Part shown: piece after piece, positions 1,574 to 42,555 of the stretch
How the letters are laid out: every line of letters starts with the position of its first letter
How positions within the stretch are numbered: the stretch's first letter is position 1
From: Pirellulales bacterium
GTDB lineage: Bacteria > Planctomycetota > Planctomycetia > Pirellulales > JAICIG01
Length of the DNA stretch: 64,000 bases
Assembly (NCBI GenBank): GCA_040901675.1
Contig: JBBDYJ010000011.1
Span: 1-64,000, forward strand
Reading direction: 5' to 3'
Translations under genes and position numbers: made by a program
Notes under the pieces: generated by a model
The model's database searches: none
What the model saw: only the letters and a program-made list of their open reading frames with translations
What the model was told of the DNA's origin: nothing

Positions 1574-1703
1574 CCTGAATTCTGGCGAATTCAGCTACGC
1601 CTGACCGTGGCACCCGGGGAAGCTTCGGGTGCCGTGCCAAGGGGCGGCCTGAATTCTGGCGAATTCAGCTACGCCTGACTTTCGGCGAATGCAGTTGCGC
1701 CTG
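1574..1703. repeat. REP-like palindromic repeat: two 32-bp direct copies plus a degenerate third
   Basis: CCTGAATTCTGGCGAATTCAGCTACGCCTGAC at 1574-1605 and 1648-1679, decayed copy about 1680-1703. A related copy lies at 55416. Confidence 0.85.
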
Positions 1704-1896
1704 GCGCTGCCGCGCGGCCGTCCGTGCAAGCGCTTCGCTCGCCGGGGTTTACGCCGGCCGGGCCGGTGCCGGCGGCGGCCGCGGCTCGTTGCTGGCCGCC
1801 GCTGTGTCCTATAGAATCAGTAGACCGCGCATGCGGCTTTTCACGGGGCGAGGGGCTGGATCTCGCGCCGGCCACCCACCAGACCAAGGAACGGCA

Positions 1897-2922
<1,026 letters not shown>

Positions 2923-3083
2923 GCAGGCGCGCGGGGCTTGCTCGGCAGGCGGCCGTTCGGCCGGCCAGCGCGCCGCGTATAATAGGGACGAGAAGACAGG
3001 CGCTCGCACGCCGGCCGCTACACCGGGCAAGCCGACCGCTCGCGCCGCGGCAGGCGGCCGCGCCCACCGCTGGATCTTGAGCC

Positions 3084-3980
3084 ATGGCCACTGCGGAAAA
3101 ATACCTCAAGCCGGAAGTGATCCGCCAGATAGGCAGGCTCGACCTCCGCGCGCAGTTCATCGTCAAGGGCTTCCTGCAAGGGCTGCACGCCAGCCCCTAC
3201 CATGGTTTCTCCGTCGAGTTCAGCGAGCATCGCAAGTACACCCCCGGCGACAACCCGCAGGACATCGACTGGCTGGTCTACGCCAAGACCGACAAGTACT
3301 ACATCAAGAAGTTCGAGGCCGAAACCAACATCACCGGCTACCTGGTCATGGACCTCAGCCGCTCGATGGGCTACACCTACCGCCAGGAGCTGACCAAGTT
3401 CGATTACTCAATCTGCCTGGCGGCCGCCTTGTGCTACCTGATGATCCACCAGCAGGACCCGGTGGGGCTGATCACCTTCGACGAAAAGATCAAGAGCAGC
3501 CTGCCGCCCCGTTCGAAGCGGGCCCAACTGGGCAACGTGCTCTCGCTGTTGAGCAAGCTCAAGCCGGCCGGCGAGACCGCCATCGCCAAGAGCCTGGTGC
3601 AGATTGCCGCCATGCTGCGGCACCGCAGCCTGCTGATGCTGTTTTCGGACCTGCTGGCCGACCCCGAGCCGATCATCAAGGCCCTGCGGCGGCTGCGGCA
3701 CGGCGGGCACGACGTGATCCTGTTTCATATCCTGGACGAGGCCGAAGTCAGCTTTCCTTTCGACGGCGTGGTCGAGTTCGAGGAGCCCGAAACCCACGCC
3801 AAAGTGCAGGTCGATGCCGGCGGCTTCCGCGCCGATTACCTGGCCGAAATGGACTCCTTCCGCGACACGTATCGGCGGGAATGCTTTCAAAGCGGCATCG
3901 ACTACGTCGCGCTCGATACCAGCATGCAGTTCGACAAGGCCTTGCTGGAGTACCTGGTCAACCGGCAGGCGAGGTACTAG
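3084..3980 (+). CDS. DUF58 domain protein (MoxR partner)
   Basis: GLHASPYHGFSVEFSEHRKYTPGD..DIDW motif; directly follows moxR. Confidence 0.93.
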   Translation: MATAEKYLKPEVIRQIGRLDLRAQFIVKGFLQGLHASPYHGFSVEFSEHRKYTPGDNPQDIDWLVYAKTDKYYIKKFEAETNITGYLVMDLSRSMGYTYRQELTKFDYSICLAAALCYLMIHQQDPVGLITFDEKIKSSLPPRSKRAQLGNVLSLLSKLKPAGETAIAKSLVQIAAMLRHRSLLMLFSDLLADPEPIIKALRRLRHGGHDVILFHILDEAEVSFPFDGVVEFEEPETHAKVQVDAGGFRADYLAEMDSFRDTYRRECFQSGIDYVALDTSMQFDKALLEYLVNRQARY

Positions 3981-3983
3981 GCC

Positions 3984-6137
3984 ATGGACTTCGTCAATCC
4001 CGCCCTGCTGGCCGGCGCCGCGGCCGCGGCGGCTCCGATCATTTTGCACCTGGTGATGCGGCAGCAGCCGCGGCACCTCGAGTTCCCCGCGCTGCGATTC
4101 ATCCAGGTGCGGCAGGATGCCAACCGCCGGCGGCTCAAGCTGCGGCACATCTTGTTGCTCCTGCTCCGTTGCGCCGCGGTCTGCCTGCTGGCCGCCGCAC
4201 TGGCCCGGCCCAGCGTCAAGGCCTCGGGCGTGATCGGCGACCAGGAAGCGCCCGTCGCCGCCGCTCTTGTGTTCGACACCGCGCCCCGCATGGATTACCG
4301 CCATCAAAACCAGACGCGGCTCGAGGTGGCTCGTGACATCGGGCTCTGGCTGGCCGGGCAACTTCCCCCCGACAGCCAGGTGGCCGTCATCGATTCGCGC
4401 CACGGCGAGGCCGCCTTCCAGGTCGACCTGGGGGCCGCCCACGACCGCATCAAGCGGCTGGAGACCGTCGCGGTGGCCCGGCCGCTGGTCGAGACGCTCG
4501 AGCAGTCGGCCGAGCAGTTGCGCAAGAGCGAGCTGGAGCGGAAGGAACTGTACGTCTTTACCGACCTGGCTCAGGCCGCCTGGAAAAGGCAAGGCACCAG
4601 CACCCTGGCCCAGCGGCTGGCGAAGCTCGACGAAATGGGAATCTACATCATCGACGTCGGCGTCGAAAAGCCCCAGAACTTCGCGCTGGGCGAGGTGCAC
4701 CTGTCGAGCGAGGTGCTGCCTCGCAGTCGGCCCTGGACGCTGGCCTGCGAAGTGATGGCAACGCAGCCGGGCGCGCGCGTGGTGCAGGCCTACCTGGTCG
4801 ACTCGGAGGGCAAGCCGCAAAAGAAGGGCGAGGACACGGTCGAGGCCGATCCGCAAACGCCTCGCCCGGTCGAGTTTGCCATTGGCGGCCTGGAGACGGG
4901 CACGCACCAGGGTTACCTGCGGCTGGTTGGATCGGATGGCCTGGCCGCCGACGACCGCCGTTGGTTCACCGTCGAGGTCAAGCCGCCGTGGCCGGTGCTG
5001 GTCGTTGCATCATCGCCTTCCGAAGCGCGTGCCGACTCGCTTACCCGGGCTTTGGCCCCGCCTGGCTTTCGCAGGACCGGCCAGGCCCGCTGGGACTGCC
5101 AGGTCGTTTCGCCGCAGCAGCTCGGCCAGCAGCCGCTCGAATCGTTTCCCGCCGTGGCCCTGGTCGATCCTCCACCGCTGTCGGAAGAGATGTGGAGCAA
5201 GCTGCACGTTTACGTCCAGGACGGCGGCAGCCTGGCCATCTTTCTTGGCCCCAGCGCCCAACCGCCTTACAACGGAGTTGGCGGACAAGAGCTGCTGGCC
5301 GGCGCCTTGGGCATCCAGGCTCGCTTTCCCGACGGCAACCTGCACGTCGTGACCGGCAACGAGCAGCATCCGATGCTGGCACGCTTCCGCCCGTTGCGAG
5401 GGTCCGTCCCCTGGGATGCCTTCCCCGTCTATCGGCATTGGCAATTGGAGCCGGTCGAGCAGGCGGCCGCCGTGCTCAATTATTCGAACAACCGGCCGGC
5501 CGTCTTGGAGCGCGTGGTAGGCAAAGGCCGCGTGCTCACCATGACGACGCCCGTCGAGGCCAGGGACGTTTCCGACGACAACCGCTGGAACCGGCTGCCG
5601 GTCGGCTTCGAGCCCTGGCCGTTCGTGATGCTCATGGACCAGATGTTTCAGTACCTCGTGGGGAGCACCGACGGGCGGCTCAACTACGCCGCGGGCGAGA
5701 CGGCCGTCTTGCGGATCGCCTCCGCCCGGCAGTTCTCGACCTACCTGGTCACTACCCCCAGGGGCGATTCGTTCCGCCAGAGTGCCGACGCCTCCGAACA
5801 ATCGATCGTGATTACCGGCACGGAGCGGCCCGGCAACTATCGCGTCAGGGCTGGAGGAGCCAGCGGCGGGATCGACCGCGGTTTCAGCGTGAATATTCCG
5901 GTCGAAGCCAGCGACCTGACGCGGCTCGACGAGCAGCAGCTCAAGCAGATCTGGGGCGAAGCCGACTTCAGGCTGGCCCGCAGCCGCGAGCAGATCGACC
6001 GCGAGGTGAACACGGGCCGCGTGGGCCGCGAACTGTTTGGGTTGTTGATCGCGGTCGTGGCGCTGGTGCTGTCGGCCGAGCACGTGCTGTCGAACCGGTT
6101 CTATCGCGAGCGGGCCCAGCAGCCGGGCAGGCGGTAA
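3984..6137 (+). CDS. BatA N-terminal domain membrane protein
   Basis: MDFVNPALL..PIILHL..FPALRFI..LLLLLR..ALARP N-terminus; C-terminal TM helix. Confidence 0.88.
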   Translation: MDFVNPALLAGAAAAAAPIILHLVMRQQPRHLEFPALRFIQVRQDANRRRLKLRHILLLLLRCAAVCLLAAALARPSVKASGVIGDQEAPVAAALVFDTAPRMDYRHQNQTRLEVARDIGLWLAGQLPPDSQVAVIDSRHGEAAFQVDLGAAHDRIKRLETVAVARPLVETLEQSAEQLRKSELERKELYVFTDLAQAAWKRQGTSTLAQRLAKLDEMGIYIIDVGVEKPQNFALGEVHLSSEVLPRSRPWTLACEVMATQPGARVVQAYLVDSEGKPQKKGEDTVEADPQTPRPVEFAIGGLETGTHQGYLRLVGSDGLAADDRRWFTVEVKPPWPVLVVASSPSEARADSLTRALAPPGFRRTGQARWDCQVVSPQQLGQQPLESFPAVALVDPPPLSEEMWSKLHVYVQDGGSLAIFLGPSAQPPYNGVGGQELLAGALGIQARFPDGNLHVVTGNEQHPMLARFRPLRGSVPWDAFPVYRHWQLEPVEQAAAVLNYSNNRPAVLERVVGKGRVLTMTTPVEARDVSDDNRWNRLPVGFEPWPFVMLMDQMFQYLVGSTDGRLNYAAGETAVLRIASARQFSTYLVTTPRGDSFRQSADASEQSIVITGTERPGNYRVRAGGASGGIDRGFSVNIPVEASDLTRLDEQQLKQIWGEADFRLARSREQIDREVNTGRVGRELFGLLIAVVALVLSAEHVLSNRFYRERAQQPGRR

Positions 6138-37692: not shown

Positions 37693-38495
37693 TGACCACT
37701 CGATTCGCTGCCGTGGCGGCATTTTTGCTGGCTGCGCACTTCTGCCCGGATCAGCCGCACGCGGACGAATCGCTGCAGGTTTCCGGCCCGGCCCCTCCGG
37801 GCGTCTCGGGCACCTTCTCGATAGTGGCCGTCGATCCGGCAACGGGCGTCTGCGGCGCCGCGGTGGCCAGCAAGTACCCGGCCGTCGGCCGCGTCGTGCC
37901 TTACGTGCGGCCCGGCGTCGGCGCGTTCTGCACTCAGCACTGGCACGAGCCGGCCTGGGGCGAGCGGGCGCTCGACCTGTTGGCCGCGGGTCGGCACTCG
38001 GAAGACGTGCTGGCGGAGCTGCTGCGAAACGATCCGCGCCGCGACAAGCGGCAGTTGGCCATCATCGACATGGCGGGACGGGCGGCCAACCGCAACCCGG
38101 CAGGCGCGGACAAAGACGGCCTTTACTGGGGGGCCATGAGCGGCCGCTACTATGCCTGCCAGGGCAACACGCTGGCGGGCCGCCAGGTGATTACCGCCAT
38201 GGCGCAGGCCTATGAGGAGACCTCCGGCAGCCTGGCCGACCGCTTGATGGCTGCCCTGGTTGCGGCCGATCTGGCTGGCGGCGACCACCGCGGGCGGCTG
38301 GCCGCCGGCATTCGCGTGGCGAAGCAAGGCGTGGAGGGGCACTGGCTGGAGTTGTACGTGGACGAGAGCGGCGACGCGGTGATCGACCTGGCCCGCCGCT
38401 ACGCCGAGTTGAAGCACGAGGCGAAAGGCGCTTGGCGTGGCGGGCAGCTCCCCTTTTCAAATCCCCGCGAACAAAAGGCCAAAGCCAAGCAGTAG
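37692..38495 (+). CDS. DUF1028 (Ntn-hydrolase-like) secreted protein
   Basis: GTFSIVAVDP..GAAVASKYPAVG, QGNTLAG, AGGDHRG. Confidence 0.9.
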   Translation: MTTRFAAVAAFLLAAHFCPDQPHADESLQVSGPAPPGVSGTFSIVAVDPATGVCGAAVASKYPAVGRVVPYVRPGVGAFCTQHWHEPAWGERALDLLAAGRHSEDVLAELLRNDPRRDKRQLAIIDMAGRAANRNPAGADKDGLYWGAMSGRYYACQGNTLAGRQVITAMAQAYEETSGSLADRLMAALVAADLAGGDHRGRLAAGIRVAKQGVEGHWLELYVDESGDAVIDLARRYAELKHEAKGAWRGGQLPFSNPREQKAKAKQ

Positions 38496-38583
38496 GAGCC
38501 CAGCAATAGGAGCCGCGGGCGGCGCGGATGGCCTTCGCTCCAAAGAGCAACTTGCGGCCGGCCTGCGGGTCTTCTGGTTCACC

Positions 38584-39000
38584 ATGCACTATCGGTTCGC
38601 CACTGCCGCCGACGTCTCCTTGCTCGCCGCGATGAACCGGCAACTGATCCAGGACGAGGGGCATCGCAATCGCATGTCGCCGGCGGAGCTGGAGCAGCGG
38701 ATGAACGGCTGGCTGAAGGAGGAATACGAGGCGGTGTTGTTCGAGAACGATGGTCGAGCAGTCGGCTACGCGCTGTACAAGCGAGAGACCGACCGCGTCT
38801 ATCTGCGGCAGTTCTTCGTCGAGGCGGATCAACGCCGCAAGGGGATCGGCAGCGCGGCAGTCGCCTGGTTGTTGTCGAACGCCTGGCGCCAGTCGCTGCG
38901 GATCCAGCTCGATGTCCTGGTGGGCAATTCGGCAGGCATCGCGTTCTGGAGGTCGCTCGGTTTTGCCGACTACTGCACGAGGATGGAGCTGGTCCGGTAG
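38584..39000 (+). CDS. GNAT N-acetyltransferase
   Basis: LRQFFV..RRKGIG, N..GIAFWRSLGF. Confidence 0.9.
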   Translation: MHYRFATAADVSLLAAMNRQLIQDEGHRNRMSPAELEQRMNGWLKEEYEAVLFENDGRAVGYALYKRETDRVYLRQFFVEADQRRKGIGSAAVAWLLSNAWRQSLRIQLDVLVGNSAGIAFWRSLGFADYCTRMELVR

Positions 39001-39015: not shown

Positions 39016-41121
39016 CTATTCCGCCGGTGTTTCGGCGGGGCTTGGCGGCGACGTGCCGTCCACGTCGCGGACGGCGTTCTTGACGCAATCGGGAAGTTCA
39101 GCCAAGGCAGAGTCGGCCACGTCGAGGCTGCCTCTCAACCGCTGGGATTTGACTTGCGTTGATCCGCCGGTCCCCGCCAGGTGGGTCCCTAGCTTGAGCA
39201 CGTCGAACAACAGGGCCCACTTGAGCTTCTCCAGATCGTTCTCCCAGCGGCGCAGCTCGGTGATTTGAGCCGGCGCTAGATGGGGCCGGGCACGGTCGCG
39301 GAAGGCCCGCAAAAACGAAAGGGCCACGTGGACTCGCCGCACGTAGGCAACGGCCTGCGAGTCGCTCAGGCCCGCCTGCCTGGGGTTCTTGGCCACGCGG
39401 TCGGCAGCCAGCGACCAGTAGTGGCTCCGCATGCCGTCGGACAGCACTTCGATGTAGGCCGGCAGCTCGTAGTTGCTGGGCCTCGCCAGGGAGAAGGGAT
39501 CTTCCTCATCGGTGAAGCCGGCGGCCATGGCCCCCAGCTCCACCCGGGCCAGTGCCATGACCCACGCCAGGCCACGGCGCACAAAATCGTCCCCCGCGTG
39601 GGAGCCTTGCTCGCTCAGCAGGCTGGGCTTGCGCTGGAGATTGCGCGCCACGTTGGTCTCGACGGCCAGCTCCGGGCGCGCGGCGATGATCTCTTCCACC
39701 ACGCGCAGCTCTTCCGGCGAAATCGCGTCCAATAGCCTGTCGAGTTGCGAGAGGGCCATCCCGTACTCGAGGTAGCCAACCAGCCGGTAGACCGAATCTT
39801 TCTTGGCCGGCTCGAGGCGGCGAGTCAGGTAGGTCTGGGTTCGCGTCTCGGTGGTGAGTGAAGCGACCGCTTCGATGTGCGGCCTGCCTCACCAGAAGAA
39901 CCCGTTCTGGCACCAGTCCTTGAAATCACGAGCGGTCTGGCTGTTGCTGGAGGTCGAAGATTGCACGCGGCGGTCTTCCCAGGCCCACCATTGGTGATGG
40001 CGCCGGTCGTAGTACATGGAGGCTGGTTGCCCCGACGAGCTTTTTTTCGCCATGGTGGTCTTCAGTCCCGGCTTGGGCAGCTCGGCCGGCATCAGCAGGG
40101 GAAACATGGCCTGGGGCGACTTCAAGGCCGCTTGCGCCTTGGCCAACCCCCACACGTCGGGACCGGCTCCGTACCGTCCGCGGAGCCACCAATGCAGACC
40201 CTCGGCCAGCCAGGTGGCCTTGAGCGTGAGATCGCCGGCCAGCTCGCGGCAGCGATCGGCATCGGCGGCGACGCGCTGGGCCAAATCGGGAGCATTCAGC
40301 GCGTCGCGGGTAAAAGGCTGGGGCGTGCCCTTCTGGCGCTTGCGGTTTTCCAGGGCCAGCAGGATCTGGTTCGAATCGCGCTTCCAGGCATAAGCAGCTT
40401 GAAAACGATCCTTGGTGAGATTGGCGTCCTCCAACACCTTCTTGGCAAGCGCCAGGCGGGCCAGGCGTATTTCCAATTCGCGTTCGGCCAGCTCGGCGAC
40501 CGCCTGGTCGAACTTCGCCGCATCCTGGGTATAGTCGCGATCGAGCACCTCGCGCTGCTGCTCGTCGAGCCTGGCGCGCCCGGAGCGCGGCACCGATCGG
40601 GCTAGTTGAGCGGTGTACTCGGCTAGCCGCTTGCCCGCCTGCAGCCGGTTGACGTCGACGTGCATGCTCCAGAGCAGCGTCTCGTAATACTCCAGGGCAC
40701 CCTCGGCGGGTGGATCCGCAATAGGGCCTCCTGCCGTTCGGGCGGCCAGGGTTTCGATCACCTGCTGTTGCAGCTCGGGCAGGATCAGAATCAGCTCGCG
40801 GGCGGAAAGCTTGGGCAGATCCTTTTCAAACCCTTGCTGCGCCATGGCCAGCCGCGCGTCGCTGAGAATGCTGGCCACCGGAGGCAGGCCTCGCTCGGAA
40901 AGCGCGTGATCGAACTGCTCCAGCCGGGCGTCGTTCAACTTACCCAGCAGCGGCGACAAGATCAGGACTGCAGAGCGGGCATCGCCGCGGAAGTAGGCGT
41001 CCGTGATCTGCCCGACCGCCTGCAGGTGCCTCTTGCTCAGCGGAACATTGGGGGCTGCCCACACTGCGGCCGCCTGTCCGTAGGCCGCCAATAAAACCAC
41101 GAGGAGACTCGCGCGTCGCAT
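39016..41121 (-). CDS. Secreted hypothetical protein, probable 701-aa selenoprotein (U411); alternatively two ORFs, 39889-41121 and 39016-39759
   Basis: A single in-frame TGA at 39891-39889 is followed by 43 sense codons running in frame into the 39759 ORF; GGUC hairpin follows the TGA. Confidence 0.7.
39860..39873 (-). promoter_or_regulatory. Putative SECIS hairpin (GAAGC-GGUC-GCUUC)
   Basis: Loop starts 20 nt after the TGA; same loop as the czcB hairpin. Confidence 0.65.
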
Positions 41122-41401
41122 TTGCCTGGCTCCTGAGGGAATGGATCCGGCCAGTTGGAAGCGGTGGTGGGGCTGAAGTTGGAGCACTTTTCGCGCCGAG
41201 GCACTGTTTACCGATGCGCTGGCGTTCGCGCCGGGGTTTCGCGCTTTGCAGGCGCTCCAGGGGCGAACGCGGAAGCATCCAACGCGCCCTCAAACGGATG
41301 TCATCTGAATCAAATTGACGTTTTCAGGCTTGTAAGTGGGACGACTGCGCCCAGTGGCCCCAGTTTTTTCCCTGGAGATTGACAGGCCGGCCCGCAGCCA
41401 T

Positions 41402-41432: not shown

Positions 41433-41493
41433 TATAGAAAACTGAGTGCATAAGTCTGTCAAAAACGTCGGCCCTTTCAAAAGGAGGTCTCAG

Positions 41494-42555
41494 ATGCCTG
41501 CCACTCGGATGCGGGGCTTTACCCTGGTCGAACTGCTCGTCGTGATGACGATCGTCGCACTGCTGGCGGCCTTGTTGATACCCGCCGTCATGGCCGCTCG
41601 CGAGACCGGCCGAACCGTGCAATGCCGAAACAGCCTCCGCCAGATCGGCATGGCCATCCTCGGTTACGCCCACCAACACAACGGCGCCTATCCCACGTAC
41701 CGCTGGTATGACCCCGGCCTGCCGCACGCGATGGACTTCAATGGCGAGAAGATCTGGGTTGCTAGTCCCCGCTGGAACTTGATTATCGGACCATTCATCG
41801 AAGGCTCGCTCGACACCGACGTTCTGGATCCGGACGGCAACGGCATCGCCGACTTCGACGACGATTTTACGCCGTTCGGCAACGACGTGTTTGTCTGCCC
41901 GAATGCGATCGAACGGAACAACTCGCGCGACAGCGGCTATGGCTACAACTACCACTTCCTCGGCCATGCTCGGGTGAACCTGGCCAACGATCCCACCTTG
42001 ATCTCCGGCCCTCCTTGGATCAACTTCCCGGTCACGCAGGCGCACATCACCAACTCGTCGCAAACCGTGATGGTGGCCGACAGCTTGGGCACCGCGGCCG
42101 GCTACGCGGACAAGAATCGCGAGCCATATTCGTTCGCCTCCAAGCGCTGCAATGCCCGCGGCAACCACGCTTACAGCCTCGATCCACCAATCCCTTGGTA
42201 TGCGGATGCAGCCGGCGATCTGTTTCTCGGCAACGTCTGCGAGATGAACTGCGAACCGCCGCCGCTGGCCGCGGCCCCCAACGCCCGATTCGGCTACGGC
42301 GCCGTCGATGGCCGCCACCGCGGCCTGGCGGTGGCGGTCTTTGCCGATGGGCACGTGGCGGCCATGACGCCGGAAGACTTTGGCTACGTTATCCGGCCGG
42401 ATGGATCGTTCGCATACCACGACCTGTCGGAACTGTTCACCGATGCCAACGGAAATGGAATTCCAGAGAAGAATGAATGGAAAGCGAGCAACCGCTGGTT
42501 CAGCGGAACGGGAGCGAACCACCTGCTTCCGAAGGCACATCCCGGTTATCGTTGA
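41494..42555 (+). CDS. DUF1559 prepilin-type protein
   Basis: GFTLVELLVV..LLIPAV.AARE..QCRNSLRQIGMA; H-X9-DG motif (HRGLAVAVFADGH). Confidence 0.93.
   Translation: MPATRMRGFTLVELLVVMTIVALLAALLIPAVMAARETGRTVQCRNSLRQIGMAILGYAHQHNGAYPTYRWYDPGLPHAMDFNGEKIWVASPRWNLIIGPFIEGSLDTDVLDPDGNGIADFDDDFTPFGNDVFVCPNAIERNNSRDSGYGYNYHFLGHARVNLANDPTLISGPPWINFPVTQAHITNSSQTVMVADSLGTAAGYADKNREPYSFASKRCNARGNHAYSLDPPIPWYADAAGDLFLGNVCEMNCEPPPLAAAPNARFGYGAVDGRHRGLAVAVFADGHVAAMTPEDFGYVIRPDGSFAYHDLSELFTDANGNGIPEKNEWKASNRWFSGTGANHLLPKAHPGYR

Follow-up and report, generated by a model that had tools for sequence, protein, structure and literature searches.

A probable in-frame selenocysteine codon in a Pirellulales gene and in its relatives from Planctomycetota

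The closest described counterpart of the gene presented here is the fdhF-type recoding of Escherichia coli, in which the SelB-bound loop behind the UGA codon reads GGUC, containing G23 and U24 in a numbering that starts at the U of UGA. For bacterial selenocysteine insertion sequence (SECIS) elements, the bSECISearch model uses a spacing window of ~16–37 nt between UGA and loop, and the bacterial SECIS models of Rfam appear to be family-specific. Glutathione peroxidase relies on a catalytic tetrad of selenocysteine (Sec), Gln, Trp and Asn. According to the accessible sections of a 2026 review of prokaryotic selenoproteomes, cysteine (Cys) forms outnumber the Sec forms in nearly all selenoprotein families (PMC13188914). 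Current detection methods lean on such Cys homologs, as stated in the available portions of three publications (PMC13188914, PMC12013277, PMC13326102), and the accessible text on deep-Sep mentions that families without Cys homologs may be missed (PMC12013277). The gene analyzed here is located on the minus strand of a 64,000-nt stretch of DNA from a Pirellulales bacterium (contig JBBDYJ010000011.1; the whole stretch is referred to as the window), where it is listed as two hypothetical open reading frames (ORFs). Comparative sequence analysis indicates that both ORFs are one gene in which UGA411 almost certainly encodes Sec. The gene is the founding member of a large selenoprotein family of Planctomycetota that had not been named before and has a canonical bacterial SECIS element.

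A reading frame interrupted by TGA in the window and in its relatives

In the ORF list of the minus strand (translation table 11), the upstream ORF extends from 41187/41121 to 39889, with the tail ...DFKDWCQNGFFW at TGA 39891-39889, and the downstream ORF extends from ATG 39759 to TAG 39018-39016 in the same frame. As read from the sequence, this TGA is the only interruption of a frame of 701 codons. The 43 sense codons between the TGA and ATG 39759 (GRPHIEAV...GYLEYG) contain neither a stop nor an ATG, GTG or TTG. This agrees exactly with the earlier note, which had proposed a selenoprotein gene split into two ORFs, the second of them starting at an ATG without a clear ribosome-binding site. 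When the TGA is translated as Sec (U), the frame starting at ATG 41121 encodes a joined, probably secreted protein of 701 residues in which U is residue 411. The N-termini of homologs line up with this start in the alignment, and most of them are hydrophobic. A scan for promoters and terminators gave no informative result for the gene at 39016..41121.

With the joined protein as query, a word-indexed search retrieved 25 relatives, about 20 of which are ~400 aa long and end at the identical alignment position (...FW, ...FY), whereas four of 745–792 aa span both halves. A protein with 94% identity likewise ends at ...GFFW. DNA was fetched for 64 loci, comprising 35 metagenome loci and 29 loci from species genomes, the latter all being metagenome-assembled genomes (MAGs) of Planctomycetota (Pirellulales, Planctomycetaceae, Blastopirellula, Mariniblastus). 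Searches by tblastn with the N-terminal and the C-terminal part of the protein yielded 61 pairings in 59 sources, i.e., the window and 58 loci, with one part lacking in six of the 64 loci. In 57 of the 61 pairings a single stop separates the parts; it is always TGA, its location directly behind F-[W/Y] is constant, and the frame continues past it in 56 of these 57 cases. Protein identity to the window falls to about 23–27% among the relatives, and 48 distinct 90-nt contexts surround the TGA. Terminal stops of the family genes vary (TAG 30, TGA 10, TAA 9), so that codon usage does not explain why TGA alone occurs at the internal site. Among the exceptions are L021, which is fused and has neither a stop nor a Cys at the site, and L017, in which the TGA is retained at the F-W site and a frameshift follows further on. 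Frameshifts between or within the parts were also observed in L031, which belongs to the same long-contig MAG as L017, and in L032; these loci may represent assembly errors or decaying copies.

The annotation as two ORFs would be correct if the locus harbored two adjacent genes of 410 and 247 residues that are translated independently or in a coupled manner and are fused in some lineages. Public sets do hold separate halves, namely 120 proteins of 340–500 aa as well as several entries of 267–340 aa that start at profile positions 405–425, and an ATG is present at 39759. However, the sequence ahead of this ATG shows no Shine-Dalgarno-like element comparable to the AGGAG in front of ATG 41121, no alternative start codon is found in the 43 codons past the TGA, and the invariant motif V448-G449-x-x-E452-Y453 precedes ATG 39759. 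Furthermore, the N- and C-terminal parts share one frame in 57 of the 61 pairings without any TAA or TAG between them, and AlphaFold2 pairs the residues flanking the TGA into a single β-hairpin. Taken together, this makes two separate genes highly improbable.

A further explanation is that a normal gene has become a pseudogene by a nonsense mutation, or that the TGA arose from an error in the sequencing or assembly of this genome, which could be supposed from the window alone, as it shows just one in-frame stop, and from the frameshifts in L017, L031 and L032. Against this stand the occurrence of the same TGA in 48 distinct sequences, which stem from many assemblies and reach protein identities as low as about 27%, the conservation of both halves, and the identical ...GFFW end of the 94%-identical protein. 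With regard to sequencing reads, in which the earlier note wanted to see the TGA, runs of three other studies and another run of the study that is the probable source provide contigs spanning the site at 91–97% identity; this bears on the span of the site and not on the letters of the codon. For practical purposes, this explanation is refuted by the comparative data and can hardly be considered credible.

An exhaustive profile search revealed 729 cluster representatives (50% identity) at E ≤ 1e-3, with 519 of them at E ≤ 1e-30. Among 169 family proteins, 120 had a length of 340–500 aa; gene callers cut them at the Sec site, with F[W/Y/..] as the C-terminal residues in 107 (FY 54, FW 41). Listed stop-free proteins of at least 560 aa number 40. 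In an alignment of 31 Sec forms and 44 stop-free forms, 12 of the latter carry Cys in the Sec column (e.g., ..QYF-C-GS, ..ELW-C-GRP, ..LFY-C-RQ), and thus the classical replacement of Sec by Cys is found in this family. The expectation of the earlier note that full-length relatives would show TGA or Cys at the site is borne out by the 57 TGA pairings and these 12 Cys forms. Its converse, that homologs with a residue other than Cys would reveal a nonsense mutation, applies in part, since 32 of the 44 stop-free forms show H, S, W, Y, gaps or others there in place of Cys or Sec. These 32 proteins are divergent and lack the whole motif around the site, and for this reason they do not turn the TGA into a nonsense mutation. 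Overall, Sec forms constitute the majority of the known members and Cys forms a minority. Judging from the sequences collected, the family is found here only in Planctomycetota. Among 401 sampled genomes of this phylum, searches with the single protein and with the profile detected it solely in the window's own genome, which does not show its absence elsewhere; the distribution in genome collections is hence patchy.

Some members show additional features. The fused proteins P0004, P0010, P0012 and P0013, which lack Sec, end in ...PTL(A/V)GCGC(Q/K), and a related ...P(T/S)L(L/V)(A/T)(V/I)PCQ motif is located near the C-terminus of some Sec forms (L011, L013, L018). Locus L018 contains two tandem paralogous copies (1594-3774 and 3983-6130), both of which have a TGA and a hairpin of their own, and three assemblies contain two family loci each (L012/L013, L016/L019, L017/L031). 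In L010 (TGA 5078) and L038 (TGA 1557), Sec is directly followed by Cys (..F-T-U-C-H-N.. and ..F-W-U-C-G-N.., respectively); this vicinal U-C pair was found in no further Sec form.

The hairpin behind the UGA codon and the selenocysteine machinery

The GAAGC-GGUC-GCUUC hairpin that the earlier note had placed behind the UGA is present exactly as described (39873-39860). It begins 15 nt past the UGA and its loop 20 nt past the A of this codon, so that the loop occupies nt 24–27 in the window, compared to about nt 27–31 in most relatives. The 81-nt stretch around the hairpin folds with −29.5 kcal/mol (z = −3.2), a value that none of 200 shuffled sequences attained. To what extent the element is conserved was evaluated from an alignment of the 51 nt starting at the TGA, comprising 48 distinct sequences. 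Only the TGA itself and the loop G-T (G-U in the RNA) are invariant. RNAalifold predicts one hairpin of 6 bp, formed by alignment columns 24–29 with 35–40, and a loop of 5 nt that mostly reads GGUC-N, with AGUU and CGUG as variants; the window and one copy of L018 are offset by one column, because their loop has 4 nt. Standard pairs account for 94.0% of the cells, in comparison to 57.7% for shuffled columns and 29–45% when the 3′ partners are slid by 1–3 columns. Compensatory double changes occur in all six pairs (100 cells), and the covariation score of 0.95, as opposed to 0.24 for the control, was reached by none of 500 shuffles. The conservation of the hairpin anticipated by the earlier note was accordingly found in the relatives, where it is both kept and covarying. 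Since the site, the codon and the hairpin are shared by 48 distinct relatives and not confined to the window, the hairpin is more than a chance structure. With its conserved loop G-U shortly 3′ of the UGA, the stem-loop has what defines a bacterial SECIS element.

The coding sequence provides a related observation. Of 31 TGA forms, 29 retain the loop-forming Val codon (GUN), compared to none of 12 Cys forms and five of 32 other forms. This comparison was not planned in advance; its outcome is the pattern expected if the RNA, rather than the protein, is under constraint.

The genome from which the window originates (G000; 45 contigs, 89.9% complete) encodes all four components whose presence the earlier note had named as informative. 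selA and selB are adjacent on contig C25 and selD is located on C41, the matches being 468.9 bits for SelA, 72 bits for the SelB wing domain and 277.4 bits for SelD, and a tRNA-SeC with the anticodon tca was identified by ARAGORN. SelA was also found in all five other carrier genomes tested, three of which have a tRNA-Sec above threshold. Other selenoprotein genes of the same genome served as controls: 10 in-frame TGAs are situated at classical U positions of AhpC/TSA-like, Rdx and FdhA-like genes, and in an ad hoc scan hairpins with loops of the type GGUC, CGUGC, AGUU or GUU and with similar spacing followed seven of them. These loop types are those of the family studied here. Nine AhpC/TSA-like matches contain one in-frame TGA each at the U-x-x-C position, e.g., W-U-G-x-C. 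Based on such gene predictions, the selenoproteome of this organism appears to be large.

If the canonical bacterial mechanism applies, SelB-GTP-Sec-tRNA(Sec) would bind the hairpin through the G-U of the GGUC loop and the bound complex would deliver Sec as the ribosome reaches UGA411, while failed recoding would leave an N-terminal fragment of 410 residues. Alternatively, the UGA might be a programmed or leaky stop that is read by a near-cognate Trp, Cys or Arg tRNA, giving one short and one long selenium-free isoform, with the hairpin slowing the ribosome or stimulating the read-through. The N-terminal 410 residues are predicted by AlphaFold2 to form a helical domain that could stand alone, and the 32 stop-free relatives mentioned above need neither Cys nor Sec at this position, both of which would fit such a scenario. 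It does not account for the use of TGA, and never of TAG or TAA, in 57 of 57 cases, and the spacing of the hairpin and its invariant loop G-U match SelB-binding elements. The hairpin also resembles those that follow the Sec codons in the AhpC-like, Rdx and FdhA-like genes of the same genome. In addition, the residue found in 12 stop-free forms is Cys, the usual replacement of Sec, and the genome possesses the full Sec machinery. Decoding as a leaky stop is consequently regarded as very unlikely, and insertion of Sec at UGA411 as by far the better explanation.

Predicted structure, conserved residues and gene neighborhood

Searches with the joined protein and both halves against Pfam (E ≤ 1) and with the joined protein and the Sec-less homolog P0004 against NCBIfam 20.0 (E ≤ 0.1) returned no family, in line with the statement of the earlier note that no known selenoprotein family could be assigned. 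An AlphaFold2 model based on an alignment of 35 rows (predicted local distance difference test score, pLDDT, 83.7; predicted template modeling score 0.79) shows helices at ~30–317 and 441–641, a third strand at 648–660, a tail that is disordered from 676 onward, and a long β-hairpin with Sec411 at its turn. A second model, restricted to residues 296–701, again placed Sec411 at the turn of this hairpin. Comparison with the PDB by Foldseek gave no match at E ≤ 1e-3, neither for the whole model nor for residues 296–701. VIA-align found generic helical bundles for the whole model (best Z 10.5, residues 83–294) and a best Z of 6.3 for residues 296–701, both within the noise of helical proteins, and a search of the ESM Atlas with the natural Sec-less homolog P0004 delivered no usable match. 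As Foldseek and VIA-align detect generic helical similarity only, the fold is referred to here as unmatched, without a claim that it is new. Insertion of the β-hairpin into a membrane was considered and set aside, since by inspection alone both strands are polar and contain many T, S, Q, R and K residues.

Two classes of conserved residues can be distinguished. A core consisting of GLxWWLRGRYGxG, RRHxxW, VGxxEY, ALARxE, H567 and R595-R596 is common to Sec, Cys and other forms; within it, W312, R316 and G318 are invariant family-wide, and R373, H375 and W379 hardly vary in any of the three classes. Conserved in Sec forms only are W151, H154, V155, N158, H310, F409 and a Cys located 20–70 residues from the C-terminus. 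The W, H, V and N of the 151–158 motif are present in 30, 30, 30 and 28 of 31 Sec forms, in four, one, three and two of 12 Cys forms, and in nine, four, six and three of 32 other forms, respectively. The C-terminal Cys occurs in 29 of 31 Sec forms by census and in 28 by column, the Cys of the window being offset in the alignment. Cys is otherwise scarce, and in several mature proteins U and the C-terminal Cys are the sole residues of the Cys type.

The polypeptide is predicted to form a helical body from which a polar β-hairpin of ~25 residues per strand projects, with Sec at the turn after two aromatic residues. The conservation patterns suggest that a Sec-dependent site has been added onto a conserved core (RGRYG, RRHxxW, VGxxEY, ALARxE) that would not itself need Sec. 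The selenol of the Sec forms might then, together with W151, H154, N158, H310 and the Cys of the tail, constitute an extracytoplasmic redox or metal/metalloid site, a proposal we put forward only tentatively. Still somewhat more doubtful is the more comprehensive picture of a new extracytoplasmic selenoenzyme or selenium-based metal(loid) binder with its own fold, which would carry the selenol between aromatic residues on the tip of a long, polar β-arm, would use it jointly with the Sec-specific His, His, Trp and Asn and with a Cys of the mobile C-terminal tail, and would be under control of an adjacent pair of extracytoplasmic function (ECF) sigma factor and Ser/Thr kinase in several lineages.

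The gene neighborhood was inspected at 54 loci, 43 of them with at least 1.5 kb of flanking sequence, and no universal operon partner of the family gene was detected across the loci sampled. An ECF sigma factor (Sigma70_r2/r4) adjoins the family gene in six loci from diverse lineages, accompanied by a Ser/Thr kinase in five of them; in L012, L026 and L029 the sigma gene is located upstream on the same strand. This adjacency may point to a regulatory link. In the window, the gene is flanked by a divergent gene for a protein with a prepilin-type N-terminal cleavage/methylation domain and a convergent gene for a GNAT acetyltransferase, neither of which is kept beside the family gene at other loci. 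The coordinates of all features are listed in Table 1.

Several observations weigh against the interpretation as a Sec-dependent protein or reduce the force of the evidence for it. The loci are mutually related and do not represent independent trials, so the counts overstate independence. The hairpin of the window itself is weak, having only 5 bp and a loop of 4 nt, one base less than the loop of most relatives, and Rfam at gathering thresholds gave no match in the window and hence no SECIS element, with only a chance miRNA match for positions 39780-39930 at E ≤ 10. SelA is encoded in 155 of 201 sampled genomes of the phylum, and its presence in the carriers therefore says little. No RNA run is listed for this stretch among the sequencing runs searched. 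The 32 of 44 stop-free forms with neither Cys nor Sec imply that the residue is dispensable for the family core. On the structural side, pLDDT is below 50 at residues 409–413, and the hairpin tip and the C-terminal tail are poorly modeled. Finally, none of the 12 Cys forms has the C-terminal Cys, and two of 31 Sec forms lack it as well, from which it follows that an intramolecular selenenylsulfide is not a general feature; the idea of a Se-S couple between Sec and this Cys as a general mechanism is weakened accordingly.

Table 1. Positions of the features discussed (window coordinates unless a contig or locus is named; C, contigs of the window's own genome G000; L, family loci)
Feature	Position	Strand	Remarks
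Single gene, 701 sense codons and TAG stop	39016..41121	minus	ATG 41121 to TAG 39018-39016, one frame
Shine-Dalgarno-like AGGAG	41130..41134	minus	8 nt upstream of ATG 41121
Probable Sec-type signal peptide (export), ~residues 1-23	41053..41121	minus	MRR, hydrophobic stretch, AAAVWA/A; by inspection only
Motif W151-x2-H154-V155-x2-N158	40648..40671	minus	Conserved only in Sec-containing forms
Core motif G-L-H310-W-W-L-R-G-R-Y-G	40168..40200	minus	H310 confined to Sec forms
Core motif D-R-R-H-H-x-W-W-A-W-E-D-R, residues 372-384	39970..40008	minus	
Predicted long β-hairpin, strands 386-410 and 413-436	39814..39966	minus	AlphaFold2; Sec411 at the turn
TGA read as selenocysteine 411	39889..39891	minus	Context F-F-W-U-G-R-P
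Residues around Sec411			...NGFFW-U-GRPHIEAVASLTTETR
SECIS hairpin	39860..39873	minus	Stem GAAGC (39873-39869) with GCUUC (39864-39860), loop GGUC (39868-39865)
Presumed start ATG of the second ORF, internal Met455	39757..39759	minus	
Cys679 in disordered C-terminal tail	39085..39087	minus	Probably the C-terminal Cys of Sec forms
Prepilin-type N-terminal cleavage/methylation domain protein	41446-42555	plus	Divergent from the selenoprotein gene
GNAT acetyltransferase	38437-39000	plus	Convergent with the selenoprotein gene
AhpC/TSA-like TGA genes	C34:50737-55098; C38:69533-69928; C37:67481-67909		Four in tandem array on C34
AhpC/TSA-like TGA genes, further	C1:169933-170202; C25:14770-15120		
Rdx/SelW-like gene with C-x-x-U TGA	C41:143334-143549	minus	Adjoins selD (C41:142023-142991)
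FdhA-like gene with TGA	C14:62917-63666		
ECF sigma factor loci	L012:519-3855; L016:6073-8860; L022:6104-8640; L026:901-3661; L029:1249-3903; L064:1236-1916		

Comparison with known selenoproteins

On the literature searched, the family is rated as not described before. The accessible parts of the review on prokaryotic selenoproteomes contain no sign of it and neither of the terms ‘Planctomycet’ and ‘pirellul’ (PMC13188914), and the same absence of the family applies to the available portions of the publications on deep-Sep (PMC12013277) and BSepDB (PMC13326102). In full-text literature, no paper was found that joins ‘selenocysteine’ with ‘Pirellulales’, and the WWLRGRYG motif does not occur in the GOS supplementary sequence files. 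One unnamed hypothetical candidate from the planctomycete P1 has been reported by database identifiers only (PMC4807772 Table S9); it is not comparable from these identifiers and might be a member of the family. This P1 candidate resembles the family studied here, as do GOS_A, GOS_B, GOS_C, DG, DW and DF, in being uncharacterized and in having an in-frame TGA, a SECIS element and Cys homologs. GOS_B, GOS_C, DG, DW and DF, however, have NCBIfam models of their own, none of which matches the family (accessions from the accessible part of PMC13188914), and GOS_A is short and unrelated in sequence.

The family is missing from Pfam, NCBIfam and, as far as their available portions extend, the reviews and databases searched. 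Its members are present in public sets as truncated hypothetical proteins, and once the halves are joined, many planctomycete genomes and metagenomes can be annotated correctly. Since Sec forms dominate, the family is well suited to address the question of why selenium is retained. If the reading as a selenium-based site is true, the added function would depend on selenium almost obligatorily, and this in a phylum in which the biology of selenium has hardly been studied.

With thiol-oxidoreductase selenoproteins (AhpC/TSA, thioredoxin-like, Rdx/SelW), many genes of which are present in this genome with similar SECIS hairpins, the family shares Sec and a probably extracytoplasmic or redox-related role. 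In contrast to the selenoproteins with a thioredoxin fold, the model is helical with one long β-hairpin and does not show that fold, and neither a UxxC nor a CxxU motif is conserved. As Sec is predicted on the tip of a β-hairpin and not in a thioredoxin-like motif, its chemistry may differ from the thiol-oxidoreductase theme. The likeness to glutathione peroxidase is by analogy only, consisting of W151, N158 and two His that are conserved only beside Sec, whereas no relation in sequence or fold exists.

The recoding element is closest to that of E. coli fdhF, with which the family shares the in-frame UGA, a small hairpin within ~15–20 nt, a loop G-U that is mostly part of GGUC, and the full SelA, SelB, SelC and SelD machinery. 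It differs in that its hairpin is short (5–6 bp), with no bulged U identified and no match in Rfam. Compared to typical selenoprotein families as characterized in the accessible part of PMC13188914, the balance between Sec and Cys forms is reversed, with Sec in the majority. The recoding mechanism itself is ordinary; what is new is the protein, together with its predicted architecture and the prevalence of Sec forms.

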